Assembly (NCBI GenBank): GCA_041665945.1
Contig: JBAYHU010000001.1
Span: forward strand, 31,863-95,862
DNA length: 64,000 nt
Reading direction: 5' to 3'
Source of the DNA: Candidatus Micrarchaeia archaeon
GTDB taxonomy: Archaea > Micrarchaeota > Micrarchaeia > Anstonellales > Anstonellaceae
The translations under genes and the position numbers were made by a program. Below, in pieces: positions 4,773 through 58,495 of the stretch (the first letter of the stretch is position 1; every line of letters starts with the position of its first letter). The notes below the pieces were generated by a model that saw only the letters and a program-made list of their open reading frames with translations, had not been told where the DNA came from and made no database searches.

Positions 4773-4780
4773 GGATTTTT

Positions 4781-14909: not shown

Positions 14910-14940
14910 AAAGAGATTACTATGACCACACTAGAATTAC

Positions 14941-15645: not shown

Positions 15646-15755
15646 TGCATCAATTTAACTTACACCTGCACAGTTTTTAGTCTTTCGCAATCTTGTCGCC
15701 CAGTCTTTCGCCCTTTCGATTTTGCAGCCGTAAAATGAAAAAAATAAGAAAAGAG

Positions 15756-23078: not shown

Positions 23079-23711
23079 CATAGCGGATTGCACTGCAACT
23101 GAATGCCTCAAGGCGTTAGTTGGCGTCAAGGCGGCTGAAATCAGGCTTGAGACCATTTCCAAGATAGACGAAACAGCCGTAAAATGGATTCTCGGCTCCA
23201 AGGCAAAAATTGTCGCGACCTGCAGGCCGGGCAAGATGCCTGACGAGAAGAGGAAAAAGCTTCTCTTGGCTGCGATTGCAGCTGGAGCGGCATATGTTGA
23301 TGTGGAAGTGGATGCTCCGGACGAGTACAAGCAGGAAATTGTGGAAGCCGCCAATGCAAAAGGTTGCGAAGTTATCGTTTCGTTCCACGACCACGAGAAA
23401 ACGCCTGTGCGCGAGGAATGGAGCAGACTATTGACTGGTGCTTCAATTCCGGCGCGGACATCGCAAAGATTGCCTGCAAGGTGAATTCCAAGGCGGAAGC
23501 CGCGAGGCTGCTTGGCTTGCTGGATGATGAGCGCGAGCTTATCATCGTTGGCATGGGAGACGAGGGGAAAATCGTGCGCATAGCCGCGCCATTGCTTGGA
23601 AGCAGGATTGCATATGTTTCGCAGGGCAAGGGGAAGGAGACTGCAAGCGGGCAGATGGCTGCCGAGGAGCTTGAGAGAAAGATGAAGGAGATTTCAAATG
23701 GCAAGGACTAG
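23065..23711 (+). pseudogene. aroD: 3-dehydroquinate dehydratase type I, interrupted by a single-nucleotide frameshift near 23415-23435.
   Basis: Frame 1 (23065-23484) encodes the N-terminal two-thirds ending HDHEKTP. Frame 3 (23364-23711) encodes the remainder, IDWCFNSGADIAKIA...IIVGMGDEGKIVRI. A 1-nt indel joins them. Confidence 0.6.
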
Positions 23712-25014
23712 GATATTCGCAAGCACGGGAAAGCCCATCATGCATAGCATAAGCCCGCAGATGCACAATGCCGCATTCCACGAGCTTGGCATGGATGCTG
23801 TTTACATCAGATTGGCGGCTGCGAACGCGGATGCCGCGCTTCTGGCTGCAAGGCAGATTGGAATGGACGGGCTGAATGTCACAACGCCATACAAGGAGGA
23901 GTTTGTGCGGCTGATGGATAACGTGGATGAAAGCGCTGCAAGCGTGGGCGCTGTGAATACCGTCAAATTGGAGAAAGGGAAGGCAACAGGATTCAATACG
24001 GATGGGAACGGAGTGTCGGGCGCGCTTATCGGCAATGGAATTGAGATAAGCGGGAAAAAGGCAGTGGTTCTTGGCGCGGGAGGCGCAGCAATGGCAGCAG
24101 TGAATGCGCTTTGCAGCAACGGGGCGGAAGTGATTGTGGCAAACAGGACACACCGGAAGGCAAAGGCATTGGCAGAAAGGTTCGGATGCGGTGCGTGTTC
24201 GCTTGAGGAAAAGGAGCTGGGGGCTGCACTTGATGGCGCGGACATTGTTGTTTCTGCTCTAAGCACGCACGAGCGGGTGGTTCCAAGGGGAATGCTTGGA
24301 AAAAACACGGTTGTGCTTGAAGCAATATACGCAAAGGGCACTGCACTTGCGGCGGATGCAAAGGAAAACGGCTGCCGCGTGCTTGAGGGAAGGGAATGGC
24401 TCTTGTGGCAGGGCGTGAAGGCATTTGAGATATTCACGGGAAGCAAGGCTCCGGAAAAAGCCATGCAGGCTGCGATTGCGAAAAAGGAGGCGCACAAGGG
24501 CAATATCGCGCTTGTCGGTTTTATGGGAAGCGGAAAGAGCCGCATTGCAAGGGAAATTTCCAAGCTTGCCGGCATGGAAAGGATTGACACTGACGAGAAA
24601 ATCAGGGAAATTGCCGGAAAGAGCATCAACGATATTTTCAAGCAGGATGGCGAGAGGGCATTCCGCGAGCTTGAAAGGCAGGCGATTGCCAATCTGCAAG
24701 GCGTTCACGGGAACGTGATTTCCTGCGGTGGCGGGGCGGTGCTTGACTCGCGCAATGTCGCTGTGCTGAAGGAAAATTGCACGATTGTCTGGCTTTGGGC
24801 AAGTGAGGAGGAGACGTGCCGCAGGCTGGAAGGGGAGAAAGGCAGGCCATTGCTTGATGCGAAAGACAGGAAGGAAAGGATTGGGGCGCTTCTGGCAGAG
24901 AGGATTCCTGCATACGCCACCTGCGCGGACTTGGTTGTCGGCACGGAAGGCATGAGTGCGAATGATGTTGCGAAGTTGATTATTGATGAAACAGGCATTG
25001 CCGGGAAAAATTAG
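23698..25014 (+). CDS. aroE-aroK: Fused shikimate dehydrogenase and bacterial-type (P-loop) shikimate kinase.
   Basis: N-terminal AroE motifs (NVTTPYK, GAGGAAMA). C-terminal AroK motifs (GFMGSGKS ... LID domain). Confidence 0.8.
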   Translation: MARTRIFASTGKPIMHSISPQMHNAAFHELGMDAVYIRLAAANADAALLAARQIGMDGLNVTTPYKEEFVRLMDNVDESAASVGAVNTVKLEKGKATGFNTDGNGVSGALIGNGIEISGKKAVVLGAGGAAMAAVNALCSNGAEVIVANRTHRKAKALAERFGCGACSLEEKELGAALDGADIVVSALSTHERVVPRGMLGKNTVVLEAIYAKGTALAADAKENGCRVLEGREWLLWQGVKAFEIFTGSKAPEKAMQAAIAKKEAHKGNIALVGFMGSGKSRIAREISKLAGMERIDTDEKIREIAGKSINDIFKQDGERAFRELERQAIANLQGVHGNVISCGGGAVLDSRNVAVLKENCTIVWLWASEEETCRRLEGEKGRPLLDAKDRKERIGALLAERIPAYATCADLVVGTEGMSANDVAKLIIDETGIAGKN

Positions 25015-27325
25015 GGGCAGCCTTCAGGCGCCTTCTTCAAAGAGCATGGCACAGCGCGCCGTGGCAGCCGCGGCAATGGCAGAAGGCATATCCGAGATAA
25101 GGAATTACCCTGATTGCGACGATGCGCTTGCGGCGATTGAGTGCGCAAGGGCGCTTGGGGCAGGAGTAAGCAGCGCGAATGGCAAGCTGATTGTCGCGGG
25201 CAACGGGAAGCCGGACGGCTCGGAGTTGCATTGCGGCGAGTCGGGGCTTTGCCTTCGCATGTTCACGCCGATTGCCGCGCTTTCGGATACGCAAACCGTG
25301 ATTACCGGCAAGGGCTCGCTTCTTTCCCGCCCTGTTGGCATGGCGCAGCAGCCGCTTGAGGCGCTTGGCGCTTCATGCGAGACGAACAGAGGCAAGCCGC
25401 CAATCACAGTCATTGGCCCGATTCACGGCGGAAAACTGGAGGTGGACGGCTCGGCAAGCTCGCAGTTCATAACGGGATTGCTGATGGCGCTTCCGCTGTG
25501 CAGGGAAAATTCCGTGATTAGTGTTTCAAACCCGAAAAGCAAGCCATACCTGCGGATGACTGTTTCGCTTCTGGAAAAATTCGGAGTAAATGTGGAATGC
25601 AATGCCTCGATGGACAAGTTCGTAATCAAAGGCGGGCAGAAATACAAGCCAACCGCCCATACCGTAGAGGGGGACTGGTCCGCTGCCGCGTTCCTGCTTG
25701 TTGCAGGCGCGATTGCAGGGAAAGTCCGCGTGCGCGGGCTTGGCATGGATTCGCTTCAGGCTGACCGCGCGATAGTGGATGCGCTGAAGCTTGCAGGAGC
25801 AAAAGTCAGGGTGAACGAGGATTGTGTGGGTGCCGAGAAGGCGGAATTGAAGTGTTTCGAGTTCGATGCCACGGACTGCCCAGACCTGTTCCCGCCGCTT
25901 GTGGCGCTTGCCTGCAATTGCAGGGGGAAGAGCAGGATTTCAGGCGCGCTTCGCCTGAAAGGCAAGGAGAGCGACAGGTCTGCGGTGCTTGTTTCCGAAT
26001 TCGCGAAGATTGGCGGCAAAGTCAGCATAAGCAATGGCGGCGACGTGATGGAAATTGAGGGCTGCGCGCTTTCCGGCGGGAAGGCGGACTCGCACAATGA
26101 CCACAGGATTGCCATGGCGCTTGCGATTGCGGCGCTGAATTCGCAGAAGGGCGTGAGCATAGAGGGGGCGGAGTGCGTTTCAAAATCATACCCCAAGTTT
26201 TTCGAGGACTTGGAAGCTTTGCAGGAAGGAGGGAGAAGCATGGACCCATTTTCATTCGGGAATAATTTCCGCATAACCGCATTCGGAAGCAGCCACGGGC
26301 CGCACGTGGGCGTGGAGATAGAGGGCTGCCCTGCCGGCGTTGAAGTGGGCGAGGCGGACGTGCAGATGTGGCTTGACAGGAGAAAGCCCGGCGCAAGCCC
26401 GCTTGCCTCTGCGCGCAAGGAAGAGGACCGCGTGATAGTGGAGAGCGGGATTGAGAACGGGAAGACCACGGGCGGGAAGATGCGGATGATTGTGAAGAAC
26501 ACAGATACGAAATCGAAGGATTACGAAAAGTTCGGCGAAGTTCCGCGCCCGGGGCACGCGGATTACCCGTCCATTGCCAAATACGGAAGCGCGCAGGCAG
26601 GCGGGGGTTTCTTCTCCGGAAGGATGACAGCGGCATTTGTCATGGCGGGGGCTGTTGCAAAGAAGCTCCTTGAGGCAAGGGGAGTGCAAACGCTTGCGTT
26701 CTCGCGGCAGATTGGAAAAGTGCGCGATGAAAAGGGCACCAAGGATGCGGACGTGCGGAAGAACGTTTACCAGAACGCTGTTCGGGCGGCTGACCTGTCG
26801 CTTGCGGAAGCGATGCAGAAGGAAATCGAATCCGCAAAAGCAGAGGGGGATTCTGTCGGCGGAGTGGTGGAGTGCCGCGTAATCGGGCTTCCGGCAGGGA
26901 AGGGGGAGCCGATGTTCCTGTCCATTGAGGGCAGGCTTTCGCAGGCAATGTTCGCAATTCCCGCGGTGAAGGGAGTGGAATTCGGCGCGGGGTTTGCCGC
27001 TGCGGGAATGCTGGGCTCGCAGAATAACGACCAGTTCGTTGCTTCCGGCGGGAAAATCGGCACGAAGACGAACAATGCGGGCGGGATACTGGGCGGGCTT
27101 TCGACCGGAATGCCGGTTGTGTTCAGGGTGGCGTTCAAGCCGACCTCCAGCATTTTCAAGCCGCAGGCGACTGCGAATTTGAAGACCATGAAGGAGGAGA
27201 AGCTCGTGATTGCGGGAAGGCACGACCCGTGCATTGCCATCCGGGCTGTACCCGTAGTGGAATGCGTGGCTGCTGTATGCGCCGCGGATTTGATGCTTGC
27301 AGAAGGGGAAGCAAAGGGGGAATGA
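24983..27325 (+). CDS. aroA-aroC: Fused EPSP synthase and chorismate synthase.
   Basis: N-terminal about 410 aa EPSPS (KSMAQRAVAAAAMAEG, LRLKGKESDR). C-terminal about 365 aa chorismate synthase (FGSSHGP, GGRSSARETA-like motifs). Confidence 0.8.
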   Translation: MMKQALPGKIRGSLQAPSSKSMAQRAVAAAAMAEGISEIRNYPDCDDALAAIECARALGAGVSSANGKLIVAGNGKPDGSELHCGESGLCLRMFTPIAALSDTQTVITGKGSLLSRPVGMAQQPLEALGASCETNRGKPPITVIGPIHGGKLEVDGSASSQFITGLLMALPLCRENSVISVSNPKSKPYLRMTVSLLEKFGVNVECNASMDKFVIKGGQKYKPTAHTVEGDWSAAAFLLVAGAIAGKVRVRGLGMDSLQADRAIVDALKLAGAKVRVNEDCVGAEKAELKCFEFDATDCPDLFPPLVALACNCRGKSRISGALRLKGKESDRSAVLVSEFAKIGGKVSISNGGDVMEIEGCALSGGKADSHNDHRIAMALAIAALNSQKGVSIEGAECVSKSYPKFFEDLEALQEGGRSMDPFSFGNNFRITAFGSSHGPHVGVEIEGCPAGVEVGEADVQMWLDRRKPGASPLASARKEEDRVIVESGIENGKTTGGKMRMIVKNTDTKSKDYEKFGEVPRPGHADYPSIAKYGSAQAGGGFFSGRMTAAFVMAGAVAKKLLEARGVQTLAFSRQIGKVRDEKGTKDADVRKNVYQNAVRAADLSLAEAMQKEIESAKAEGDSVGGVVECRVIGLPAGKGEPMFLSIEGRLSQAMFAIPAVKGVEFGAGFAAAGMLGSQNNDQFVASGGKIGTKTNNAGGILGGLSTGMPVVFRVAFKPTSSIFKPQATANLKTMKEEKLVIAGRHDPCIAIRAVPVVECVAAVCAADLMLAEGEAKGE

Positions 27326-40094: not shown

Positions 40095-40760
40095 CTATTC
40101 CTTGTCCTCGTTTTCCTTGTAGCGGCTGGAAATCGCGTGTCGGAGTTCCTTTGCCCGCTTATCGCCTATCTTCCCGACCTCCTGAAGCTCGGATTCCGGC
40201 GCAGTCATCACGTTTTCCACTGTCTGGAAGTATTTGAGAAGCTCACGGGCGAGTTTCGGGCCCACGTTGGGCAGGGATTCGACAATTCCCCGCTGCTGCT
40301 CGGCGAGATTCCGCGCCTTTCGCTTGGCATATACTGAAAGCGGCTGGTTTTTCGCCACCTGCTCGTGGCGAGCGAGCGCAAGGAGCATTTCCGCCGTGCC
40401 TGCCGGGGAGCGGGTGAAGAAAATCGCGCATCCGAAGTCGGAAATTATCGAGGAGTAGGCGCCAAGGAGCGCGGCGCGGTTGATGCGGGTTTCATAGTCA
40501 GAATCGCCCTCCACTATGAGGACTATGCGCGGCATTGCCTGCGCAAGGTCTGGCAGCTGAGAAAAGAGCCTGTTGTCCATTATTGAGGACTCGAAGTCGG
40601 AGCGCGTCTTTCTTTCCACAAGCAGGCGGTCGGAGAGCTGGTAGTCGCCTATCTCAAGCTGGCGAAGCTCAATTTCCGCGCCCATGCCCTCGAGGCAGTC
40701 GCACACCGATTCCGGCTCGCGGTTGTCGGCGATGATTCTCGGTTTTTTCGTTTCAGGCAT
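40095..40760 (-). CDS. Short XPF/ERCC4-family endonuclease (nuclease domain plus HhH2).
   Basis: ERCC4 motifs (DNREP, GDYQLSDRLLVERKTRSD) and a C-terminal helix-hairpin-helix pair. Confidence 0.65.
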   Translation of the reverse strand: MPETKKPRIIADNREPESVCDCLEGMGAEIELRQLEIGDYQLSDRLLVERKTRSDFESSIMDNRLFSQLPDLAQAMPRIVLIVEGDSDYETRINRAALLGAYSSIISDFGCAIFFTRSPAGTAEMLLALARHEQVAKNQPLSVYAKRKARNLAEQQRGIVESLPNVGPKLARELLKYFQTVENVMTAPESELQEVGKIGDKRAKELRHAISSRYKENEDKE

Positions 40761-40774
40761 GTGAACACTTTTCC

Positions 40775-41164
40775 CTAGGCGCGCTGCATTTTCTTCCAGA
40801 GGCTTTTCATCTGCCTGTCAAAAGTGAGTATTTCCTGCCTTGCATTCCTGCCGTGCAAAAGCACGGTTGCATCCGTGTAGGAGATGGGGGCGCCAAGCTC
40901 CTTTAGCAGGAGAACGACCTGCCCGGAAGGAAGCGGATCTGTTTCGTAATAAAGCGAATCCCCAAGAATTCCTTCAACAGCGGCAAGCGAGTCGTCAAGG
41001 CTGCTCTTATAGATCAGCACTGAGCAAAGTTCCATTACGACCTCGTGAGGCACGATAAGCGTTTCTTTTGCCCTCCTCATCTGCTCAAGAGCACGCACCG
41101 CTTCTTCGTGGTTTGGGTCGAACGCGGCATAGAAGGCAAAAAGAACAGACGTGTCGATTACCAT
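40775..41164 (-). CDS. vapC: PIN-domain toxin VapC.
   Basis: MVIDTSVL... acidic PIN residues. Overlaps the upstream antitoxin. Confidence 0.65.
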   Translation of the reverse strand: MVIDTSVLFAFYAAFDPNHEEAVRALEQMRRAKETLIVPHEVVMELCSVLIYKSSLDDSLAAVEGILGDSLYYETDPLPSGQVVLLLKELGAPISYTDATVLLHGRNARQEILTFDRQMKSLWKKMQRA

Positions 41165-41388
41165 CAGCGCACCTTCCCGTAAAGTATCTCGTCAATGTGC
41201 TCGCTGACGTTCTCTTTCTTCCTTCCAGCGTATTTTTTTTCAAGCTGCCGCATAACCGCGAAGGTGAGCTCCCCGGGCTTGGCGCGGCTTTTGAGCATTT
41301 CCTTTATCACGTCGTTGTAGCTGCGGCTGCCTTTGAGCTGCTGGAGAAGCGATGCTGTTTCCTCATCCACCCGTATTGTTTCAACCAT
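41164..41388 (-). CDS. vapB: VapB-type antitoxin.
   Basis: Small ORF (MVETIRVDEETASLL) overlapping the vapC start by 1 nt. Confidence 0.5.
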   Translation of the reverse strand: MVETIRVDEETASLLQQLKGSRSYNDVIKEMLKSRAKPGELTFAVMRQLEKKYAGRKKENVSEHIDEILYGKVR

Positions 41389-41460
41389 GTATACATGCAT
41401 GTATACAAGATTTATTAAAGCTTGCCCAGGCAGGTTGCCAGTGGGTTGCCCACCGAGGCA

Positions 41461-42153
41461 TCAGTTGCGTATGTGGTCCTCGACGTAGTCTTCCACTTCG
41501 CCCATGCCAACAGCGCAGCCCGCGTATTTGAGGCGGTAAAGCGACGCCTCGATTGCGTCCTGCTCCAACTCGCCGTATTCGCGGAAATACCCCTTTTCAT
41601 ACGCGAGCAGGAGGAGTTCGCTTGAGCGGAAAAAGCGCATGCCTTTTGTGAGGCGCGAGAATGCCGAGAGGTTTTTCTCATCAACTGTTATGGGGCGGGA
41701 AAGCTCGTCTTCGAGGTGCTTGCGCAGCGACTCCGGGTCCTCGCAAAGCATGCGGGTGGTGCGCTCGTCTATAAGCACGTTTGACACTCCGGTTTCGACC
41801 GCAAGCGCGAGCATGTCCGCTTCGCCGTCGTGGAGAAGGCGCAGCGGGGTTCCCGAGGCGTAGAAGATGTTGTTCGCAATCCACTTTATCTCGTTTGATT
41901 CGCGGGAGGAAGAGAGAGGGGAGAGGGTTATCGCGCCGTCGAGTATGGCGCGCTTGAGCCGGATTGCGTGAAGCGCGTGCATCTTCATCTGCATGGGGCG
42001 CTCCACGCACTCGTATTCCACGGAATCCGGGATGAGGAAACTGCCCTTGAACTTGCGCTTGAGGAAATAGAAGACGTGCACGAAGCAGGAATCTGTTATG
42101 GAGATGAGCGAGGACGAATCGCAGACCAGCGATTGCCCTGATAGCTTGGGCAT
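41461..42153 (-). CDS. PIN-like domain protein with a C-terminal extension.
   Basis: LVCDSSSLISI ... HDGEADMLALA acidic residues in PIN-like spacing. Confidence 0.35.
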   Translation of the reverse strand: MPKLSGQSLVCDSSSLISITDSCFVHVFYFLKRKFKGSFLIPDSVEYECVERPMQMKMHALHAIRLKRAILDGAITLSPLSSSRESNEIKWIANNIFYASGTPLRLLHDGEADMLALAVETGVSNVLIDERTTRMLCEDPESLRKHLEDELSRPITVDEKNLSAFSRLTKGMRFFRSSELLLLAYEKGYFREYGELEQDAIEASLYRLKYAGCAVGMGEVEDYVEDHIRN

Positions 42154-42184: not shown

Positions 42185-43144
42185 TTAGTCGGATTCCAGA
42201 AGCGACCTGAACTCCCTGCTGTATTTCACGAAGCTGTCTAGGAAATTGCCCAGCCCAGAAAGCTCGGAAAAAAGCGTCTTGCCATTGCACCCGTCCTGCG
42301 CGAATTTGACCATCTTGCGGCATAAATCAGGAAAAGGGATGGCGAGTAGGAACTGCGAATCGTTGGACTGGTGCCGCTCGGCGTTGCCCCGAAGCGCGAT
42401 TGCGATGCACATTGCAAAAGAGCGCTGCGCGGCTTTTTTCTGCGTGCCGTTCGGGAGAGAGGAGATGTGTTCTGCCACAACTCCGAAATCCATGCTCTCC
42501 ACTTCGAAGAAAACAGGCTCGTTGTTCCGGACATGGAAGTTCCATTCCGGGGCGATTATTCCGATGCCCGCTTCCCTGACTGCGAAGACTCGCGAGCCGA
42601 AATTGCAGGCGCGCTCTGCGCGGGAAACCATTTCTTTTTCCTGCTGTTCACGGAGTTCCTTCAAAAGAACCGGGTTGGATTGGTAGGGTGCGATGTTTTT
42701 CCGAAATTCCGCCCTTTGCGATTCGATGTAGCCCACCATGCCGCAGGCGTCGGGGATGAATTCGAAGAACAAGGACGCGGTGCCGTGCTGGGACATCGGC
42801 TTGCCGTCAAGCTCGAAGCGGACTGCCACGGGCTTCGGGAAATTTTCGGGAAAGAGGATGTGCGCGAGGTTGGAGGTGTGGAAGCGGAGCATGTGCGCGC
42901 CTGGCTCGTAATTCGCAAACGAAATCTGCACCTCTCGGGAAGCGTGGAGATTCTGGTGGCACGGGTAGAACAGGACAGGCGTCCGCCTCTCCTCAATCAG
43001 GCAGCGGCGCTCGGCTTTCCTGTTGAAAAGAAAGTGCCTTGAGAAAATCTTGCGCACCGACGCCTCGTCCCCTTTTGAGATGTGCTTTCCCAGTATGACA
43101 ACCGGAAGCTTCGGGGAGTTGAATGAAACTGGGGCGGCAACCAT
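42185..43144 (-). CDS. Atypical protein-kinase-like fold protein.
   Basis: Gly-rich loop ILGKHISKGDEASVRKI, a catalytic-loop-like HTSNLAHILFPENFP and a DFG motif (SMDFGV). Confidence 0.35.
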   Translation of the reverse strand: MVAAPVSFNSPKLPVVILGKHISKGDEASVRKIFSRHFLFNRKAERRCLIEERRTPVLFYPCHQNLHASREVQISFANYEPGAHMLRFHTSNLAHILFPENFPKPVAVRFELDGKPMSQHGTASLFFEFIPDACGMVGYIESQRAEFRKNIAPYQSNPVLLKELREQQEKEMVSRAERACNFGSRVFAVREAGIGIIAPEWNFHVRNNEPVFFEVESMDFGVVAEHISSLPNGTQKKAAQRSFAMCIAIALRGNAERHQSNDSQFLLAIPFPDLCRKMVKFAQDGCNGKTLFSELSGLGNFLDSFVKYSREFRSLLESD

Positions 43145-43219: not shown

Positions 43220-43243
43220 TCAGGAGAAGATTTCGCGCAAGTC
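43220..43243. repeat. Direct repeat, copy 1 (tcaggagaagatttcgcgcaagtc).
   Basis: 21 of 23 positions identical to copy 2 at 44876-44899. On the minus strand it would encode ...DLREIFS*, identical to the C-terminus of gene 44876-45427. Confidence 0.6.
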
Positions 43244-43293
43244 GGAGAACCGATATAAATTTTCATGTAGAAGATGGCTCGGGAAGAGGGAAA

Positions 43294-44823
43294 ATGCGCG
43301 CTCTTCCCGGAGATGGGCAAATGTTCCTGTTTCAGATTGGTTTTAAGACCGGCAAAACGACTGAAATGGTGGAGAACACCTTGGTCAAGGGAAAGACCGC
43401 GACTTCATACATCGGCGACAAGTTCAACTTCACGCTCAAACCCAACAGCGACGTCGTCGTCTCCGCAAGGGGGGAGACTTACTATAGCAATTCGCAGAAC
43501 GACAAGAACGTGGTTTCAAGGACGCAGATGTTCGGCATCGGCATTGAAGCGGACAGCAAAAAATTTGAGATTGCTGGGAACACGTGGAAGGTCATCGGCA
43601 CGAGCGACTTCCCGAAAAGCATGACGATAAAATCAGAAGGCGGGCAAACCGTAGTTCTGGAAGACGGCAAGAGGATAAACCTCGAGGCGGCAAACGGAAA
43701 GAACAAGGACTGGAAAGTGGCGTTCGCCAAAACCGACAACATATACGACGTTTACCAGAACAAGTCAAACGGGACAGAGGAGCGGGTGTGGGTATACCGC
43801 GATGGCAACAACGAGAAATGCCTGCCCGGCGACGGGCTGAACCTCCCCGCCTATTTCGGGGGGAAGTTCACATACGACGGGCTTGTAAACAACGAGAAAT
43901 ATCCGCTAACAGTAAAGGTGCTGAAGTCAGACACGTATGAACTGGAGTCCACCGCATCCCACCGATCTGTCACAGGACCCGCAATAGAATTCACCGCAGA
44001 GACGCCGGGCTACATTGATGGCTACAGTGGCATCGAAGGCAGCACTACCACTCATCGGGTACAAAAAGCATTGCTGGTTTTTGCTGAGGATGGCACAATC
44101 CCAGCCATATTCCTAAAAGATAATGCCGACAAATACAGCGAGGGTGGTTTTAATCCGGGAATGCTGTCTGGTTCGCTGGATTACATTAGCATTGGCTGGG
44201 GTAAATCCGAGGTCAGAATCCGTGAATTGGCAAGGCCCAGCACAAAAAACCAGGCAGGAAGCGAAGTGGCGTTAGATATCCCGATAAGTGAAATGCGCAA
44301 CAGTAACGGAACACGGGAACTGATACTCGCCGGGCCCAAATACACTGGTATTGGGCAGACACAGCCCTTTAATCTCGAAACAGGATTCATAACGGAGCGG
44401 GGAAGCGAAATTTCCTCCTGGGGCGAAAAATCCTGCAACATTTTCATAAACTGCGGCAGTGTAGGCGAAAAGTTCGGCATTGCCAAGACAAAGTGGACGC
44501 TGGAGGATGGCCCAACCACCACCGGCATCAAGGATATCGGAACGCCAGTGCCGACGGACTTCCAGCTGAAGCAGAACTACCCCAACCCGTTCAACCCGGC
44601 AACCACGATACCCTTCACGATGAAGAAGGACGGGAACGTGAAAATCAAGGTGTACAACACGCTCGGGCAGGAAATAGCCACGCTTGCCAACGAGCCGCAT
44701 GTTGCAGGGCAGCATTATGTCAGGTTTGACGGCAGCAACTTTGCCTCGGGCGTGTACCTTACCACGCTGGAAATTGACGGACAGCTGGTCGGCAAGGGAA
44801 TAAAGATGAACCTCGTGAAGTAG
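43294..44823 (+). CDS. Protein with a C-terminal bacterial T9SS type-A sorting domain (Por_Secre_tail-like).
   Basis: C-terminus QNYPNPFNPATTIPF...VKIKVYNTLGQEIATL...GVYLTTLEIDGQLVGKGIKMNLVK. No N-terminal signal peptide was evident. ATG at 43294 follows a TATA-like gatataaatttt. Confidence 0.6.
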   Translation: MRALPGDGQMFLFQIGFKTGKTTEMVENTLVKGKTATSYIGDKFNFTLKPNSDVVVSARGETYYSNSQNDKNVVSRTQMFGIGIEADSKKFEIAGNTWKVIGTSDFPKSMTIKSEGGQTVVLEDGKRINLEAANGKNKDWKVAFAKTDNIYDVYQNKSNGTEERVWVYRDGNNEKCLPGDGLNLPAYFGGKFTYDGLVNNEKYPLTVKVLKSDTYELESTASHRSVTGPAIEFTAETPGYIDGYSGIEGSTTTHRVQKALLVFAEDGTIPAIFLKDNADKYSEGGFNPGMLSGSLDYISIGWGKSEVRIRELARPSTKNQAGSEVALDIPISEMRNSNGTRELILAGPKYTGIGQTQPFNLETGFITERGSEISSWGEKSCNIFINCGSVGEKFGIAKTKWTLEDGPTTTGIKDIGTPVPTDFQLKQNYPNPFNPATTIPFTMKKDGNVKIKVYNTLGQEIATLANEPHVAGQHYVRFDGSNFASGVYLTTLEIDGQLVGKGIKMNLVK

Positions 44824-44875
44824 GCGGCTTTTGGATTTCGGGCGTCCTAAAGCCCGACCTTTTCTTTTTTCTTTT

Positions 44876-44899
44876 TCATGAGAAGATTTCGCGCAAATC
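44876..44899. repeat. Direct repeat, copy 2 (tcatgagaagatttcgcgcaaatc). Overlaps the stop codon of gene 44876-45427.
   Basis: See copy 1. Confidence 0.6.
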
Positions 44900-45427
44900 C
44901 TTCATCCTCTCCTCGATGCCCTTCTTTTCCTTCAGGCGGTCGAACATCATCGTCTGCCCCGCGTAGAGGAGAAGCTCGCGCTTGTCTATTCCGGCAATCT
45001 CCGCGGCGTTGCCAAGCGAGATTCCCTGCGCGTAAAGCGTTGCCGCGATTTTTATCCTGCCCTTCTGGAGAATGCCTTTCACGAACCTGCGGTCCTTCTC
45101 GTCCATCTTCTCGATTTCGGCGATGACCTTGTTCTGGCATTTTTCGAGGCTCGAGTAATTCGCCGACTTGGCGTGCGTCTCGCAAAGCTTGAGGTCCGCG
45201 AGTATTTTCGCGACTGATGCCTTGGATTTTTCCTGCGTGAAGTAGCGCGGCTTGGAGATTATCTTCGAGAGTATGTAGGTGATGAGCGCGAAGAGGTAGG
45301 TGTTTGTCCCGAACTTTATCGCGGTCTCCTCGATGCAGCGGTCGTTTATCCTGCGCATGGCGCGCACGTCGTGGTTGCGGAGAGCGTCGGCTATGAGATA
45401 CGAGGTTTCTGCGAGGGACAATGGCAT
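44876..45427 (-). CDS. Hypothetical protein with a C-terminal HTH-like segment.
   Basis: ORF. ISLGNAAEIAGIDKRELL is HTH-like. Confidence 0.35.
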   Translation of the reverse strand: MPLSLAETSYLIADALRNHDVRAMRRINDRCIEETAIKFGTNTYLFALITYILSKIISKPRYFTQEKSKASVAKILADLKLCETHAKSANYSSLEKCQNKVIAEIEKMDEKDRRFVKGILQKGRIKIAATLYAQGISLGNAAEIAGIDKRELLLYAGQTMMFDRLKEKKGIEERMKDLREIFS

Positions 45428-45531
45428 GATTGCACCGCGATTTGGCAGGAATTTCTGGAAGAGAAAGTGAATTAACGTGTTTGATTTTTGTAAAGTTGCA
45501 ACGTCGGACGAACCTACGCCTTTTTATATAT

Positions 45532-45552
45532 TATCATGACAACGTCATGATA
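45532..45552. promoter_or_regulatory. Perfect 9-bp inverted repeat (tatcatgac-aac-gtcatgata) between a TATA-like box and the GTG start of the wHTH gene.
   Basis: Palindrome 17 bp upstream of 45569; preceded by tttttatatatt. Confidence 0.5.
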
Positions 45553-45568
45553 ACAGATTGACAGGTTC

Positions 45569-46099
45569 GTGACACCAACACAGCAAACGATTGAGAAAAT
45601 GAAACGCAACGAACCATATAAACCTATCGAGCAGGGATCCGGGAAGGACGCGATTGACGAAGTGAGGCACGAAATCCTCTCCCCGCTTGAGAATGACATT
45701 GCGAAGCTGCGGGACCCGGTGGTCCTGGCGGCTCTCATGCACACTGCGGCGACCGAGCGGGAAAACACCAATCGGCTGCTCAAGACGCTGATAGAGCGGC
45801 TTGACACGAGGTTCGCAGAAGTGGAATCCAGGCTTGCGGCCATGGAGCGCGCAGGCGCGCCCGCCGCTGCTGTGCATGAGGCGGGATTGGAAGGGGAAAT
45901 CCTTCTCCCATCCGTTGACGAGGAGATGCTGAAGTTCGTGAAGGAAAGGAGGCATGTGAACGCGGAAGAGGTCCGCATGAAGTTCGGATACAAGGGGAAA
46001 AACGCGGCAAGTTCGCGCCTGAACCATCTCTACGAGATGGGGCTTCTGGGAAAGAAGCAGGTCGGGCGGGTCGTGATGTTTTTCGCCAAACAACCATGA
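45569..46099 (+). CDS. Hypothetical protein with a C-terminal winged-helix DNA-binding domain.
   Basis: SSRLNHLYEMGLLGKKQVGR is wHTH-like. GTG start. Confidence 0.4.
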   Translation: MTPTQQTIEKMKRNEPYKPIEQGSGKDAIDEVRHEILSPLENDIAKLRDPVVLAALMHTAATERENTNRLLKTLIERLDTRFAEVESRLAAMERAGAPAAAVHEAGLEGEILLPSVDEEMLKFVKERRHVNAEEVRMKFGYKGKNAASSRLNHLYEMGLLGKKQVGRVVMFFAKQP

Positions 46100-50467: not shown

Positions 50468-53400
50468 TTAAGAGCATCCGGTGGTTTCCCCGCAATCGAC
50501 ACATACTTGGCACGAGCCGTTCTGCTTGACTTTCATGGAGCCGCATGCCGAGCACTGCGCGCCTGTGAAGCCCTGCGCCTTTGCGGACTTCGCCTTGTGC
50601 TCGTACTCGTCGGTTTCCCGCTCCTCCTCGGAAATCTCCTGCCGCTCGGGCTCGATGAGCTTCACCTGCGATTTCTGCTCTTCCACATGGGGGACGGGTG
50701 CGGGGCCGTGCGAGTCCCCGTTCACAGTTTTCACGTGAACGAAGTCCTGCCTGCCAAGGTACTCGTAGCCAAGCACGCGGAACACGTAGTCGATTATCGA
50801 GGTCGCGTTCTTTATCGCCTCATGCCCTGTCACAACTCCCGCGGGCTCGAAGCGCGTGAAGGTGAACGTGTCCACGAATTCATCCAGCGGCACGCCGTAC
50901 TGCAGTCCCTTGCTTACCGCAATGGCAAAGCAGTTGAGAAGCGAGCGGTAGCCCGCGCCCTCCTTGTACATGTCGATGAATATTTCGCCGATTGTGCCGT
51001 CCGGGTATTCGCCGGTCTTGAGATAGACCTTGTGCCCGCCCACGCGCGCCTCCTGTATGAAACCCTTGCGGCGGGTGGGAAGCTTCTTGCGCGAGAGCCT
51101 GCCGACAATCTTGGACTGCAATTGCGCGGGGCCGAAGGACTCGTCGATTTCCTCGCCCAAGCCGAGAAGCTGGGCAAGCTCGTCCTCGTCCACGTCCGCA
51201 GTCGCGTTGAGCGGCTGGGAAAGTTTGCTGCCGTCGCGGTAAAGCGCGTTGCTCTTCAGCATGTGCTTCCACGAGAGCATGTATGCCTCCTTGATGTCCT
51301 CGATTGACGCGTCGGAGGGCATGTTTATCGTCTTTGAAATAGAGCCTGTGATGAACGGCTGCGCGGCAGCCATCATCTTTATGTGCCCGAGGTAAGAGAT
51401 GAAGCGCGTGCCTTTCTTGCCGCACTTGCTCGCGCAGTCGAAGACCGCGTAGTGCTCGGGCGAAAGGTGAGGGGCGCCTTCGAGCGTCATGCTCCCGCAG
51501 ACGTATTCATTCGCCTCCTCTATCTGCTGTTTCGTGAAGCCGAGCTTGGAGAGCAGGTCGAACTTGGGATTATCCATCTCCGCGTCGGTGAATCCGAGAC
51601 GGCGCAGGAAGTCATCGCCAAGCGAGTACTTGTTGAACGCGAAGCGGATGTCGAACGCCTTGGGAAGCCCTGCTTCAGCCTTCGCAATCTTGTCTGCGGG
51701 GAAGCCCTTTGCCCCAAGCGACGCGGCGTTTATGTGCGGGCAGCCAGTGAGCGTGCCGTGCCCCATTGCGTAAAGCTCGATTTCCCGCACCTGCGAGGAG
51801 TTGTAGCCGAGCTTGACAAGCGCCTTTTTCACCGAGGCGTTGACTATCTTGAAGTAGCCGCCGCCTGCGAGCTTCTTGAATTTCACTATCGCGAAGTCGG
51901 GCTCGATTCCCGTTGTGTCGCAGTCCATCTGAAGCCCGATTGTGCCTGTGGGCGCGATTACTGTTACCTGCGCATTGCGGTAGCCGTATTTCTCGCCAAG
52001 CGAGTAGGCGCGGTCCCAACTCTCCCTTGCCGCCTGCGTGAGGTAGCCGGGGCAGTATTTCTCTTCTATGCCCACGGGCTTTGCAGTCAGCCCCTCATAC
52101 TCGTTTGCAGCCGTATTGTACGCCGCGCGGCGGTGGTTGCGTATCACCCGGAGCATGTGCTCACGGTTGCGCTCGTATGCTAAGAAGGGCGAAAGCTCCC
52201 GCGCCATTTCCGCGGAAGTCGCGTAGGACTCGCCGCACATTATGGAGGTGAGCGCGCCGCAGATTGCCATCCCTTCCGGGCTTTCGTACGGGACGCCCAG
52301 CATCATGAGCACCGTGCCCATGTTGGCGTAACCCAATCCGAGCGTGCGGAATTCGAAGCTTTTTTTGGCGATTTCCTTTGCAGGGAACTGCGCCATGAGG
52401 ACGGAGATTTCAAGCACGACCGTCCAGAGGCGGGTTGCGTGCCGGTATGCCTCGATGTTGAACGCGCCAGTGGATTCGTCGAGGAATTTGGCGAGGTTGA
52501 TGCTGGCGAGGTTGCATGCCGTGTCGTCGAGGAACATGTATTCCGAGCAGGGGTTGGACGCGTTGATGCGCCCGTCAACAGGGCAGGTGTGCCACTCGTT
52601 GATGGTGTCGTCGTACTGCACGCCCGGGTCGGCGCACGACCACGCGGCATAGGCGATTTCGTCCCACAGGTCGCGGGCTTTCATCTTGCGCATGACGCGC
52701 CCGTCCGTCCTTGCAAGAAGGCTCCATTCCGCGTCGTTCTCCACTGCCCAGATGAAGCGGTTGGAGATGCGCACGGTGTTGTTGCCGTTCTGCCCGGATA
52801 CCGTGACGTATGCCTCGGACTCGTAGTGCGTGTCGAATACGGGAAAATCGATTTTTTCCTTGCCCTGCTTGGCAAGCGAGAGCGCGCGGAACACGTAGTT
52901 GAGCGGCACTTCCTTGGCAAGAGCCTGCACGACCGCGAGCTTTATCCTCTCGTTTTTCAGGTCAGTGGATTGCTCCTCGCGGGCGACTTTCATTATCTTG
53001 TTGAGGTGCTTTCCGCAGGATTTGCTCCCCGCCACCATTGCCGCGACTTTCATCTCCTCGCGCATCTTCCAGTTCACGAACTGCTCGATGTCAGGGTGGT
53101 CGACGTCGACTATGACCATTTTCGCGGCCCGGCGCGTCGTCCCGCCGGATTTTATCGCGCCTGCCGCGCGGTCGTTTATCTTGAGGAATGACATCAGCCC
53201 CGAGGAGATTCCGCCGCCTGAGAGCCGCTCGCCTGCGCCGCGGAGCGCGGAGAAGTTCGTGCCCGTGCCCGAGCCGTACTTGAACAATCGCGCCTCGCGC
53301 GTAACCAGGTCGAATATGCCTCCGCTGTTCACCAAGTCGTCGCGGACGGACTGGATGAAGCAGGCATGGGGCTGTGGGTGGGTGTATGCGTCCTCGGACA

Positions 53401-55799: not shown

Positions 55800-56246
55800 T
55801 CAGTCTTCCTCTGCACTCCTGTTCTGGGCACCTGCTTTCGCCTTCTGTGCTTGCTCAAGAATATCTGCAGGAAGCTCCATTGGCGGTTCGAGAAGGCAGC
55901 GCGCGGGGGAATTCGCATCCTCGCCTCCCTTCCAGAATTCGCATTCCGGATTGTTGCACCAGATGCGCAACTTGAGGTCTCTTGGGTCAGCGAAGCAGGA
56001 AATAGTCACGCTGTCGCAGGAGATGGTTATCCCATTGCGCCCATTCTTCCTTGAGGGCAAGACTTCCCCCGTTTTTTTCTCTGTCATGCGCGTTGCCGTA
56101 AAAAGAGGTTCGTCGTAAAGCATATTTTCAATGAACTTGCGGGCGCTGCTCTTTATGCTAGCCGTAGCTTCGGAATAAAGTCGCTTCGCGTGCTCGCTGC
56201 GCATGCCGATTTTGCCGCCTTCGTATTGGCAATTCTGGACTCCCAT
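55800..56246 (-). CDS. Hypothetical protein.
   Basis: ORF only. Confidence 0.3.
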   Translation of the reverse strand: MGVQNCQYEGGKIGMRSEHAKRLYSEATASIKSSARKFIENMLYDEPLFTATRMTEKKTGEVLPSRKNGRNGITISCDSVTISCFADPRDLKLRIWCNNPECEFWKGGEDANSPARCLLEPPMELPADILEQAQKAKAGAQNRSAEED

Positions 56247-56298
56247 GCAGTCCTTCTTCTGGCAACGTAATAAAAAATAGTGCTCAGTCCGGCACCCG

Positions 56299-56412
56299 TT
56301 ATTCCTTGCCCCTTGCGCACGGAGAGGGGCGTTTTGTTACACACGGATATAAGCCAGCGGGAGCAGAAACAGCGCATGCAATCCATTGCTTTCGCTGCAA
56401 CACTGTCTTCAT
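56299..56412 (-). CDS. Small ORF (37 aa, MKTVLQRKQWIACAVSAPAGLYPCVTKRPSPCARGKE), possibly a degraded paralog of the 45-aa Cys-rich protein.
   Basis: Shares its terminal 20 nt (tgcgcaaggggcaaggaata) and the ...CARGKE* ending with ORF 57474-57611. Confidence 0.25.
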   Translation of the reverse strand: MKTVLQRKQWIACAVSAPAGLYPCVTKRPSPCARGKE

Positions 56413-56594
56413 TTTCTGGCAGCGAAAGCTTCCCCCCTCTGCCCGGGCTGGCCGCCCAACTACTTTCCTAGCCCAGAACAACAGAAAATCCGATTTTTCT
56501 TTTTGTCAAATAGAATAACGCAAGTAATCAATAGATAGGGGTGGAAATATGAAACAGGTGGAAAGGGGTCTGCTTCCTGGATAACCGGGCAGGC

Positions 56595-57434
56595 GTGAAA
56601 AACAGGATTGGCGCAAGAGTGGCAATTTTAGGTGCGGGAAGCATGGGCACCGTCCTTGCCGAAGGGATAATCAGGAAGGGCGTGTTTGATGCGAAGGATG
56701 TGAGTGTCACAGGGCGCGGCAAAACCGAAAATCTCGCGAAATTGCACTCGCTTGGGGCAGAGGTGGAGCAGGGCAATTGCTCGGCTGTTGAAAAAAGCGG
56801 CATAGTCATCCTCTGCGTGAAGCCCAAGGACATGGGAAGCCTTCTCAACGAGCTTGGAGATGCCTGCCGTGGCAAGCTGGTGGTATCCATAGCCGCAGGC
56901 GTGTCCATCGGCACGATAAGCAGGCGGCTGGCTGGAGCGCGGGTGGTGCGGACAATGCTGAACGTCTGCGTGGAGGCTGGAAAATCGGCAACCGCAATCT
57001 GCTACGGGGGCAAGGCGCGGGCGGAAGACAGGCTTGAAACCGAGAGGATATTTTCGGGCTTCGGCATGGTGCTTGGGGCAACGCAAAAGCAGATGGCGGC
57101 TTTCACCGCGCTTGCGGGGTGCATGCCCGCGCTTCTCTTCGAGCTGATGGGACGACTGGAAAAATTCGCCTCCGAGCGGGGCTTTTCAGCCGAAGTTTCG
57201 CGCGAGCTTGCAGCGCAGGTGTTCGAAGGCTCGTCGCAGGTATTCCGCGCAAGCAAGAAGGGAAGCACGGAGCTTGTGCGGTCGGTGATGTCCAAACGGG
57301 GAGCCACGGAAAGGATGTTCGAGTCGCTTGATGGCGCGGGATTTTTCGAAGCTTTCACGCCTGCGCTTGCGGAAGCTGAAACAAGGACGGAAGAGCTTGG
57401 CAGGGAAATAAACGGGGTGATGAAAAAGGAGTAG
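56595..57434 (+). CDS. proC: Pyrroline-5-carboxylate reductase.
   Basis: ILGAGSMG Rossmann motif and the P5CR C-terminal domain. Confidence 0.75.
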   Translation: MKNRIGARVAILGAGSMGTVLAEGIIRKGVFDAKDVSVTGRGKTENLAKLHSLGAEVEQGNCSAVEKSGIVILCVKPKDMGSLLNELGDACRGKLVVSIAAGVSIGTISRRLAGARVVRTMLNVCVEAGKSATAICYGGKARAEDRLETERIFSGFGMVLGATQKQMAAFTALAGCMPALLFELMGRLEKFASERGFSAEVSRELAAQVFEGSSQVFRASKKGSTELVRSVMSKRGATERMFESLDGAGFFEAFTPALAEAETRTEELGREINGVMKKE

Positions 57435-57473
57435 GGTGGGAAGCTGGATGGCTTCCCTTTTTTCTTTTCAGGG

Positions 57474-57611
57474 CTATTCCTTGCCCCTTGCGCAGTGCGC
57501 GCAGACAAACCCGACCTTGCACTGGGCGCGCCCGCAGTTGCCCCTGCCGCACATCTTGCAGCTCTCGGTGGCGGTACGCCCGCAAACAGCGCATAATCCG
57601 GCAATATTCAT
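57474..57611 (-). CDS. Small Cys-rich protein (45 aa, 8 Cys in four pairs; zinc-ribbon or rubredoxin-like).
   Basis: MNIAGLCAVCGRTATESCKMCGRGNCGRAQCKVGFVCAHCARGKE. Not in the ORF track because it is under 60 aa. Confidence 0.4.
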   Translation of the reverse strand: MNIAGLCAVCGRTATESCKMCGRGNCGRAQCKVGFVCAHCARGKE

Positions 57612-58081: not shown

Positions 58082-58495
58082 CTAGCGGGATTCTATTTTT
58101 TTCGACACCGAGTCTAGCCAGCGATAAACTGCGCTTACTGATTTACTGCCTTCTGCGACGTCTTTTATCAATTTTGCCATTTCGCCCTGCTTATCTTCAC
58201 TGACAAAAACCCCCCATGAGTTCATGTTCAGAAAGATAGTTGTGCTAATCAGCGCTGTTCGCTTGTTCCCATCGGCAAAGGCGTGGCAGTTGTACGCCAA
58301 GTGATAAAGCAGAAATGCCGCCTTCTTGAAAAGACGCTCTTTTTCATCCATTATATTTTCGCCGTAATGCTGCACCGCTTCAAGGTAGTATTCGAGATTT
58401 GCCTCTGCGTTGACTACCGAGGGTTGTGAATACCTAGAAGTAACCATTCTGTTTATCCGTATCACAATGTTTTTTTCGAGATAAATGATTTGCAT
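58082..58495 (-). CDS. doc: Fic/Doc-family toxin (death-on-curing).
   Basis: HAFADGNKRTAL Fic motif. Low-GC context. Confidence 0.7.
   Translation of the reverse strand: MQIIYLEKNIVIRINRMVTSRYSQPSVVNAEANLEYYLEAVQHYGENIMDEKERLFKKAAFLLYHLAYNCHAFADGNKRTALISTTIFLNMNSWGVFVSEDKQGEMAKLIKDVAEGSKSVSAVYRWLDSVSKKIESR

Follow-up and report, generated by a model that had tools for sequence, protein, structure and literature searches.

In the window, by which we mean the whole 64-kb stretch of Micrarchaeota DNA that was analysed, a segment with a single gene lies between two short direct repeats, one of which is the 3' end of the conserved gene p183. The features of this locus and its surroundings are the following.

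40095-40760, minus strand: ERCC4/Hef-like nuclease gene, the left synteny anchor
40775-41400, minus strand: VapB/VapC-like pair, another insertion specific to this lineage, lying between the ERCC4 gene and p230
41461-42153, minus strand: p230, putative toxin with a DUF3368 (PIN-like) domain, conserved partner of p183 by synteny
42185-43144, minus strand: p319 (319 aa), an extra gene inside the old p183-p230 spacer
43220-43243: DR1, first repeat copy, TCAGGAGAAGATTTCGCGCAAGTC, relic of the p183 stop codon and last 7 codons
43244-44875, plus strand: inserted segment, 1632 bp, a single transcription unit from promoter to terminator with repeats at both ends
43252-43261, plus strand: TATA-like box GATATAAATT, read from the sequence, 8 nt past DR1
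43280-43309, plus strand: leader hairpin with a 9-bp stem, CGGGAAGAG / CTCTTCCCG, directly before the start codon
43321-44823, plus strand: cassette gene, encoding a 500-aa beta-rich protein without signal peptide, of a 7-member archaeal family
44578-44820, plus strand: Por_Secre_tail / T9SS type A CTD-like beta-sandwich (aa 420-500)
44838-44875, plus strand: terminator-like hairpin and T-rich tract, whose final 12 nt, CTTTTTTCTTTT, abut DR2
44876-44899: DR2, second repeat copy, TCATGAGAAGATTTCGCGCAAATC, functional stop and final 7 codons of p183
44876-45427, minus strand: p183 (183 aa), UPF0175-like putative antitoxin, intact and conserved in Micrarchaeota
45599-46099, plus strand: p176/166-aa winged-helix-like gene with a palindromic promoter element, the right synteny anchor

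The two repeats, noticed in an initial annotation of this DNA, are real: DR1 and DR2 are identical at 22 of 24 nucleotides, including an exact core of 17 nt, and because both read DLREIFS-stop on the minus strand, both mismatches are synonymous. As that annotation had it, the downstream copy is the true 3' end of p183 (...LREIFS*), and the upstream copy is an orphan duplicate of the same gene end; DR1 still adjoins the original spacer that once lay downstream of p183, and the sequence beyond it is similar to the p183-downstream spacers of the related loci L010 and L138. The 17-nt core occurs twice in the whole window, and in Markov simulations an exact 17-mer repeat within 3 kb appeared in 2 of 100 runs (mean 0.02 per simulation). 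For each of the 802 ORFs with 45 aa or more, the final 24 nt were compared with the 5 kb downstream; the outliers were the DR pair (22/24) and one other pair (21/24), the maximum in the reverse-complement control being 18/24. Metagenome contigs gave at least 119 matches to the core, each single-copy among the matches listed, and none of the contigs fetched was related to the window; the repeat is thus not a common motif.

Comparison with relatives defines the unoccupied state of the site. Ten related Micrarchaeota loci (L003-L007, L009, L013, L136, L138 and the P0122 contig) lack the inserted segment and have a single repeat copy at the end of p183, with p230 next downstream across a gap of 11-102 bp; in the sister lineage L136, TCAGGAGAAGATTTCCCGCAATTC is followed by p230 after 42 bp. 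Homology to these relatives runs leftwards from DR1 and rightwards from DR2. The idea of a site-specific insertion that regenerates the terminus of p183, put forward from the sequence at the outset, is therefore supported: a 1.63-kb promoter-to-terminator unit entered p183 within its final 24 bp, and the duplication of this stretch left an intact p183 at DR2 and the old gene end at DR1. It could be objected that the repeats are short and that most of the compared sequences are metagenome assemblies, so that the repeat might be coincidental or an assembly artefact and the gene vertically inherited in place. This is extremely improbable in light of the repeat statistics, the correspondence of the repeat to exactly the stop and seven codons, the way in which homology continues outwards from the two copies and the ten empty sites. 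In addition, the arrangement is identical in three same-species assemblies and hence is not an assembly artefact; one of these is a k141 assembly, in which a 24-nt repeat should be unable to cause a false join. All three contigs with the exact p183 protein have the cassette, no same-species empty allele being found among them, and no circular form of the cassette was found.

The genes around the insertion show that this locus has changed more than once. p183 scores 22 bits against UPF0175 (cut-off 27.9) and has 91 homologs, mostly of 183 aa, and p230 has a weak precomputed match to PF11848, its orthologs matching DUF3368 at E <= 1e-5. UPF0175 has been reported only adjoining COG2405 (PMC5499597). 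Like UPF0175/COG2405 (DUF3368 PIN) toxin-antitoxin pairs, p183 and p230 are adjacent and co-directional in ten relatives; unlike these pairs, both proteins are much longer than the domains, and both genes are fixed at one position beside the ERCC4 gene across the group. Because of this fixed chromosomal position, p183 and p230 behave more like core genes than like mobile toxin-antitoxin modules, and their toxin-antitoxin activity is putative. In the window they are now 2.7 kb apart, with p319 and the repeat-flanked cassette between them. p319 is missing in L003-L007, L009, L013, L136 and L138, and L010 has a distant homolog of it (26% identity, E 3e-17) directly after p183; halves of the old p183-p230 spacer are recognisable on each side of p319, and no direct repeat flanks it. 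The VapB/VapC-like pair, recognised by a PF01850 PIN match and a faint PF02697 match on the gene calls of L016, is absent in L136 and other relatives. No repeats of 11 nt or more flank VapBC, p319, the low-GC gene or the Fic gene, and the p183/p230 locus is also unstable in L008 and in the P0218 contig.

The inserted segment itself contains one gene and no pseudogene debris. Its own TATA-like box, already noted in the first reading together with the single gene, aligns with GAATATAACC upstream of the homolog in L001 and may serve as the promoter. The leader hairpin was considered as a conserved RNA element and rejected: folding z-scores were -1.0 to -1.8, and the hairpin is not significant on its own because its z-score is only -1.8; L001 has a different 8-bp stem at the corresponding place. 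The terminator-like hairpin has a 6-bp stem. No inverted repeats pairing the two ends of the segment were found, and a search for an integrase, transposase, recombinase or Cas1 returned none in the segment or among the window's 57 larger ORFs (E <= 1e-5). ARAGORN found no tRNA, and Rfam gave one intron-containing tRNA, far from the insertion locus.

A second segment of the window has a similar layout.

56298-56319: orphan copy, the stop and last 6 codons (CARGKE*) of a 45-aa Zn-ribbon ORF, 51 nt before the start of the gene at 55800-56246 (minus strand)
56320-57472, plus strand: TATA-like box, proC (P5C reductase), hairpin and the 12-mer CTTTTTTCTTTT at 57457-57468
57473-57494: functional copy, 3' terminus of the Cys-rich 45-aa ORF at 57474-57611 (minus strand)

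The two copies, of 22 nt each, are identical at 21 positions; no database record of the 45-aa ORF was found. The proC and p183 cassettes have repeats of similar length (22 and 24 nt), the same convergent orientation and a common rare 12-mer at the right end, of which the window has exactly these two exact copies and which is absent from 137 other loci compared; the 12-mer could simply be a terminator. Within this window, the proC case hints at a recurrent mechanism.

Several known systems share some of these properties. Elements integrated by tyrosine recombinases leave a classic att signature, namely a repeat by which the target gene regains its 3' end. The segment resembles such 3'-end integrative elements (genomic islands, prophages and archaeal elements of the SSV/pNOB8 type) in its bounding direct repeats with a regenerated target end, its intact target gene, the unoccupied single-copy sites in relatives and the occupation of the same locus in a second lineage. 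It differs from them in having no encoded integrase or recombinase in the insert or in the 64-kb window, a length of 1.6 kb with one gene, and a target that is protein-coding rather than a tRNA. One explanation of this mixture is that the segment is the stump of a larger plasmid or virus that integrated at an att site and later lost its integrase and further genes, one cargo gene remaining between attL and attR; the 24-bp repeat is what such an origin would leave, and the locus has gathered other accessory genes, namely VapBC and p319. We consider this unlikely, given that the segment is a tidy single transcription unit free of debris, that the N-terminal domain of its protein has no match in phage or plasmid records, IMG/VR contigs or PHROGs, and that the proC case has the same minimal one-gene layout.

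Casposons, which use a Cas1-casposase, target the 3' termini of genes for tRNAs or for proteins (aEF-2, for example) and make target-site duplications of fixed length, 14-15 bp in those studied. The 3' end of a protein-coding gene as target and the similar, apparently fixed duplications (24 and 22 nt) recall casposons; however, the segment has no Cas1, PolB or terminal inverted repeats, its duplication is longer and its size is one tenth of theirs, and a casposon was rejected. Integron gene cassettes, which have been reported from archaeal MAGs too, are likewise single-gene units at a specific site without their own recombinase; the segment differs in its own TATA-type box, the flanking target duplication, the lack of intI in the window and the short 6-bp-stem terminator hairpin in place of an attC-like imperfect palindrome, and this assignment was rejected as well. 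A transposon, IS or MITE was likewise rejected, there being no terminal inverted repeats, a duplication of 24 nt and no transposase in the window. We propose that the machinery was supplied in trans and acted on a site of about 22-24 bp, either as a recombinase or integrase making a staggered cut or through one crossover that joined a circular cassette, bearing a single copy of the site, to the chromosome. The segment with proC at 56.3-57.5 kb would be a product of the same process.

The start of the cassette gene is ATG 43321 (MFLFQI...), which is common to the homolog P0002 and was also chosen in the gene annotation of a second assembly; an NCBI entry with 100% identity, 'T9SS type A sorting domain-containing protein [Candidatus Micrarchaeia archaeon]', begins at a later Met. 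The recognition of a T9SS type A sorting domain in the first reading holds, since hmmsearch with PF18962 (35-35.2 bits, cut-off 27) and TIGR04183 (28.2 bits, cut-off 23) passes both curated cut-offs at the C-terminus; PF18962 matches 6 of the 7 family members. Like the cargo of the T9SS in Bacteroidota and the FCB group, the protein has this domain of about 80 aa at its extreme C-terminus, with a predicted Ig-like sandwich fold matching FlgD, PorU and PorZ, and has the NxPNPF, GxY and terminal K-x-x-x-K-type motifs (KQNYPNPFNP, SGVY and KMNLVK). It differs from such cargo in its archaeal host, in a passenger domain confined to archaea and in the lack of a Sec signal peptide: none of the seven family members has a hydrophobic N-terminal stretch, and in the first 70 residues of the cassette protein the maximum 15-residue hydropathy is 0.44, in agreement with the initial remark that no obvious signal peptide is present. 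In addition, no T9SS component (PorV, SprA, PorU/Z, PorKLMN and others) was found among the 57 larger ORFs of the window at E <= 1e-5. Micrarchaeota are not known to have an outer membrane, and a single-membrane archaeon should have no T9SS. For this reason, and because a signal peptide is lacking, the tail is most likely an Ig-like binding or assembly module and not a secretion signal, and the host organism most likely cannot use it as a secretion tag; the protein has the T9SS CTD domain but should not be classed as a T9SS substrate. Phage proteins named for a T9SS-type CTD are listed in BFVD, in which proteins the tail seems to act as an Ig-like binding or assembly module. We found nothing specific in the literature on T9SS or Por_Secre_tail in archaea.

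The rest of the protein is confined to a very small family. Of 1.84 billion representatives, no more than 7 proteins contain the N-terminal 420 aa, matches outside this family cover only the tail, and the five members with readable contigs all lie in archaeal contexts, which include an ERCC4 nuclease, PolD DP1/DP2, UPF0147 and HAD genes. Searches with the family profile or the N-terminal domain gave no PDB match, no Pfam family beyond those of the CTD type, no PHROG or PADLOC family, no phage or plasmid record and no IMG/VR contig, and a pattern scan of JGI metagenome contigs gave nothing. The structural model of the cassette protein is of moderate quality (pLDDT 68.8), and its N-terminal part matched no known fold; an AlphaFold model from 3 sequences was unusable (pLDDT 42).

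These data bear on the initial proposal of a horizontally acquired bacterial cassette. A recent transfer of the complete cassette from a Bacteroidota-like donor would account for the tail, whose identity to the CTDs of bacteria such as Ignavibacteria, Bacteroidota and Marinimicrobia is 50-64%, and for the low GC that had been noted; this latter observation stands only in so far as GC (0.521) is slightly below the window mean, the difference being marginal (z = -1.0), with GC3 at 0.662 (z = -0.56) and a codon-usage distance that is average for the window. However, the N-terminal domain has no bacterial homolog among the 1.84 billion representatives, every member with a readable contig is in an archaeal context, the promoter is of the TATA type and common to L001, and CTDs within the family match one another as closely as they match any bacterial CTD, which makes a bacterial donor of the whole cassette very unlikely. 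Judging by sequence, the inserted gene is not bacterial and belongs to a tiny DPANN/Micrarchaeota family with the canonical T9SS type A CTD fold as its sole recognisable module. Since L001 has a copy with 38% identity at this very locus, the gene has circulated within this archaeal group rather than being a recent arrival from a bacterium.

A neighbor-joining tree of five flanking proteins (1095 columns) has the topology ((window,L136),L138),L001 with about 100% bootstrap at each node, and L001 is thus outside the clade formed by the window, L136 and L138. Its homolog is oriented as in the window, is flanked by the ERCC4 gene and p176, and has promoter and leader features in common with the window cassette; just upstream of the TATA box there is a possible decayed DR1 (12/24, including TTCGCGC), and downstream of the homolog a possible relic of the p183 start codon. 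In L001 and L002, the CTD genes have no direct repeats on their flanks. The L001 copy suggests either that site-directed insertion happened repeatedly or that the cassette was gained once and then precisely lost. Because L001 has a family member at this locus, the insertion could be a single older one that predates the divergence of the window, L136, L138 and L001 lineages; L136 and L138 would then have lost the cassette precisely by recombination between the repeats, and L001 would have lost p183 and p230. Besides the L001 homolog with its shared features and possible relics, the ability of repeat-mediated excision to yield exactly the empty sites found and the evident instability of the locus (L008 and the P0218 contig) favor such a history, which we nevertheless regard as rather doubtful. 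It requires one gain and two precise losses, against two gains, and further events as well because p319 sits between DR1 and p230; moreover, the non-coding DR1 would have to have kept its 22/24 identity across a divergence that left the flanking proteins about 70% identical and the L001 relic at 12/24, and DR1 is no more diverged from the alleles of relatives than the coding copy. The p183 end of L136 differs from DR1 by 2 mismatches and from DR2 by 3, and that of L138 by 4 and 6, respectively. DR1 is therefore closer than the coding DR2 to both alleles, and so well-preserved a neutral relic argues for a young insertion, the dating being based on a handful of nucleotide differences.

Together, we favor an insertion specific to the lineage of the window, which would have occurred after its split from the L136 lineage, was driven by machinery acting in trans, has its mechanism in common with the proC case and delivered an archaeal CTD protein; to this reading as a whole we assign a probability of about 60%. 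The locus then offers a clean and datable gene gain in a reduced DPANN genome, in which a full transcription unit was added and a conserved gene was left undamaged, and in which a putative toxin-antitoxin-like pair was split. If the proC segment arose by the same process, the two cases would point to an insertion mechanism of these archaea that has gone unrecognised, with a signature that could be searched for, namely the last 22-24 nt or so of a gene duplicated 1-2 kb downstream. A small, fast-evolving archaeal protein family has been defined, and the annotation 'T9SS sorting domain' in archaea is no evidence for secretion or for a recent bacterial origin of the whole gene. As to the function of the cassette protein in an episymbiont, an obvious conjecture would be that it interacts with the host at the cell surface.

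A bolder and improbable reading is that the segments represent an undescribed class of Micrarchaeota elements: integrase-less single-gene cassettes, complete from promoter to terminator, that insert convergently into the last 6-7 codons of genes with a fixed duplication of about 22-24 bp, end on the right in the T-rich CTTTTTTCTTTT and move between related genomes, one of them spreading the CTD family that lacks signal peptides. If such a class existed, the retention of a canonical T9SS domain without a signal peptide in organisms without a T9SS would imply a T9SS-independent role for this domain. Its examples would be both window cassettes together with the divergent CTD cassette that L001 has at the locus corresponding to that of p183.

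Two nearly identical direct repeats, DR1 and DR2, enclose a segment (43244-44875) that carries a gene with a T9SS-type C-terminal tail (the CTD gene).

Features around the CTD gene, in window coordinates
40095-40760, minus strand, ERCC4 nuclease gene
40775-41400, VapB/VapC-like pair (PIN and VAPB_antitox) between p230 and ERCC4, absent in the sister lineage L136 and in other relatives
41461-42153, minus strand, p230
42185-43144, minus strand, p319, a 319-aa gene inside the old p183-p230 spacer
43220-43243, DR1, orphan copy, TCAGGAGAAGATTTCGCGCAAGTC
43321-44823, plus strand, CTD gene, 500 aa
44876-44899, DR2, functional copy, TCATGAGAAGATTTCGCGCAAATC
44876-45427, minus strand, p183, 183 aa
45599-46099, plus strand, p176

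The initial annotation had described the repeats as the end of p183 and an orphan duplicate of it, and this description proved accurate: the copies agree at 22 of 24 positions around an exact core of 17 nt, DR2 is the stop and final seven codons of p183, and DR1 likewise encodes DLREIFS-stop, so that both differences are synonymous. The core has only two copies in the 64-kb window, and an exact 17-mer recurring less than 3 kb apart was seen in 2 of 100 Markov simulations. In a dedicated scan of the final 24 nt of each of 802 ORFs (at least 45 aa) against the 5 kb downstream of that ORF, the pair scored 22/24, and the maximum of the reverse-complement control was 18/24.

We reached orthologous loci in three ways, via the 176-aa neighbour gene, via p183 homologs and via closer p176 homologs. 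The order p176(+), p183(-), p230(-), ERCC4(-) occurs in ten relatives (L003-L007, L009, L013, L136, L138 and the P0122 contig), with a gap of just 11-102 bp between the stop of p183 and the start of p230; these empty sites support the earlier proposal of a site-specific insertion that regenerates the terminus of its target gene. Relative to them, the p176-ERCC4 stretch of the window has three extra blocks, namely the VapBC-like pair, for which no flanking repeat was found, p319 and the repeat-flanked CTD gene. The site is single-copy in L136 (TCAGGAGAAGATTTCCCGCAATTC); one of its sides adjoins CTTCATCCTCTCC, just as DR2 does, and the other adjoins a 42-bp spacer and then p230. Similarity to the relatives runs from the p183 body into DR2 and from DR1 out into the spacer, exactly as predicted by a 24-bp target duplication, and the arrangement is identical in three same-species assemblies and is therefore not an assembly artefact. 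These comparisons argue firmly that the cassette is an insertion. The novelty is modest but real: in a DPANN archaeon, a single-gene insertion that has no integrase has restored the end of its target gene and separated the members of a conserved UPF0175/DUF3368-like pair. DUF3368, a PIN-like family, is matched by p230 and its orthologs, and p183 has a sub-threshold match to UPF0175, a family reported only beside COG2405/DUF3368, with which it is predicted to form a toxin-antitoxin pair (PMC5499597).

The locus varies in other ways among the relatives. Loss of the p183/p230 pair has recurred: L008 (9650-10000) has just a truncated remnant of the p183 N-terminus, ERCC4 directly adjoins p176 on the P0218 contig, and the CTD gene stands in place of the pair in L001. 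Two small ORFs between p183 and p176, in L004 only (9250-9990), resemble in sequence an RHH-like antitoxin and a toxin of RelE/ParE-like type, a further accessory insertion at this locus. A p319 homolog (26% identity) directly follows p183 in L010 (1284-2342), and a TPR-like gene, not p230, comes next. L136 has beside ERCC4 a 1381-aa gene (1527-5672) with no Pfam hit and no counterpart in the window. A TATA box and then a conserved palindrome, TCATGACAACGTCATGA, at 45520-45565 precede the winged-helix-like p176 gene; the two also lie upstream of the p176 homolog in all relatives examined (L001, L003-L008 and L010), and the palindrome looks like a candidate autoregulatory operator.

Neighbour joining on five flanking proteins (1095 columns) gave the tree ((window,L136),L138),L001, in which every node has bootstrap support of about 100%. 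The L136 and L138 sites are empty. In L001, p183 and p230 are missing, and the interval from ERCC4 to p176 holds a family member that is oriented as in the window and is 38% identical. The L001 and window cassettes share the TATA-box position and the first codons of the gene, both have a leader hairpin, with differing arms, and L001 retains a possible decayed DR1 (12/24, including TTCGCGC) and a possible relic of the p183 start downstream. Two histories remain: the cassette entered the same site twice, in the window lineage and in L001, or it entered once and was then precisely lost twice through recombination between the repeats. DR1, which is non-coding, still matches DR2 at 22 of 24 positions, and its mismatches to the L136 and L138 alleles (2 and 4) do not outnumber those of the coding copy (3 and 6); the flanking proteins of the window and L001, by contrast, are only about 70% identical. 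The few sites of the repeat favour a young, lineage-specific event for the window cassette.

The segment reads as a tidy transcription unit, with a TATA-like box 8 nt past DR1, a leader hairpin, the ORF, and a hairpin and T-tract ending exactly at DR2. It contains no recombinase gene or terminal inverted repeats, and a check of the window's 57 larger ORFs found no integrase, transposase, Cas1 or T9SS component, which suggests that the insertion would have been made by machinery acting in trans. A second repeat-flanked segment lies 12 kb away:

The proC locus, in window coordinates
56298-57494, proC segment including repeats, proC convergent with the 45-aa ORF
57474-57611, minus strand, 45-aa Cys-rich ORF, end duplicated

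Here 57473-57494 (22 nt) is the stop and final six codons (CARGKE*) of the Cys-rich ORF, and an orphan copy (56298-56319, 21/22 match) is located 51 nt ahead of where the next minus-strand gene starts. Between the copies are a TATA-like box, proC, a hairpin and the 12-mer CTTTTTTCTTTT, which has exactly two copies in the window, each marking the right end of one of the repeat-flanked segments, and is absent from 137 other loci searched; the window is poor in long T-rich tracts. The two cases share the repeat length (22 and 24 nt), the stop codon within the repeat, the convergent inserted gene and the right-end motif, and these four features suggest that both segments may stem from a single process that recurs and whose cut spacing or site length is fixed. 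As a second insertion, the proC segment is suggestive only, and it adds to the modest novelty as a probable further example.

The protein itself has a counterpart of 100% identity in NCBI, encoded on a 224-kb contig and entered as 'T9SS type A sorting domain-containing protein [Candidatus Micrarchaeia archaeon]'. Its start is placed at ATG 43321 (MFLFQI...) because the homolog P0002 has the same N-terminus and an independent gene call in a second assembly gives 500 aa. The T9SS domain first noticed by eye is borne out by scores above the curated cut-offs for PF18962 (35 bits against 27) and TIGR04183 (28.2 bits against 23). In a collection of 5.8 billion sequences, full-length matches were limited to two other proteins (38% and 35% identity). 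The remaining matches, about 1,400, are restricted to the final 13-25% of the query, and those with names belong to Ignavibacteria, Bacteroidota, Marinimicrobia and similar bacteria. When 1.84 billion representatives were searched exhaustively by HMMER, the N-terminal 410 aa gave eight matches, seven of them real. All seven family members (450-530 aa) end in the same tail, truncated in P0214, and none has a hydrophobic N-terminus, in keeping with the lack of a signal peptide noted initially. Members with readable contigs have archaeal neighbours (ERCC4 in L001, PolD DP1/DP2 and UPF0147 in L014, HAD and GlmS in L015), and the passenger domain is therefore archaeal, with bacterial affinities limited to the tail. 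The tail is also better conserved within the family (up to 65% identity, versus 22-37% for the N-terminal part), and is equally close to bacterial CTDs and to those of its own family.

The view of the cassette as bacterial is thus not supported, since only the tail has bacterial affinity and composition is unremarkable. The lower GC reported initially is only slight (0.521, z = -1.0), GC3 is 0.662 (z = -0.56) and the codon-usage distance is average; the gene does not look freshly acquired from a donor of different composition. In gene content the window is an ordinary piece of archaeal chromosome (fibrillarin, Dph2, aIF2-gamma, L15e, S6e, SMC, class II RNR and an intron-containing tRNA). Export as T9SS cargo depends on a Sec signal peptide and on a translocon in the outer membrane; all members lack the former and the host is an archaeon, so a role of the tail as a T9SS signal is unlikely. 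Also modest but real as a novelty is a rare archaeal protein family that has kept a canonical T9SS tail it lacks the means to use. Phage proteins in BFVD are named for the same domain, so that use of this fold outside secretion is not unprecedented, and an AlphaFold model from the seven sequences is all-beta (pLDDT 68.8). Our working guess is a fast-evolving protein whose tail is a binding or assembly module.

The window's clearest candidate for recently acquired foreign DNA lies elsewhere, in a 234-aa ORF (14941-15645, minus strand; GC 0.38, GC3 0.36, z about -4.5) that has no match in Pfam or PADLOC and is bordered by T-rich tracts at 14899-14912 and 15737-15754. A gene of the Fic/DOC family (58082-58495, minus strand), low in GC (0.44), is likely a further accessory gene. 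Two gene fusions of the shikimate pathway (23698-27325) join shikimate dehydrogenase to shikimate kinase (438 aa) and EPSP synthase to chorismate synthase (779 aa); for a DPANN archaeon, both the biosynthetic capacity and the architecture of these genes are unusual. A 119-nt tRNA (9039-9157, minus strand; Rfam, 53.7 bits), missed by ARAGORN in default mode, must contain an intron. Finally, a 19-nt direct repeat (18/19; 50772-50790 and 52881-52899, 2.1 kb apart) lies within the 1214-aa class II ribonucleotide reductase gene, whose Pfam barrel domain is matched in two stretches; the repeat may be tied to an intervening element or be due to chance.
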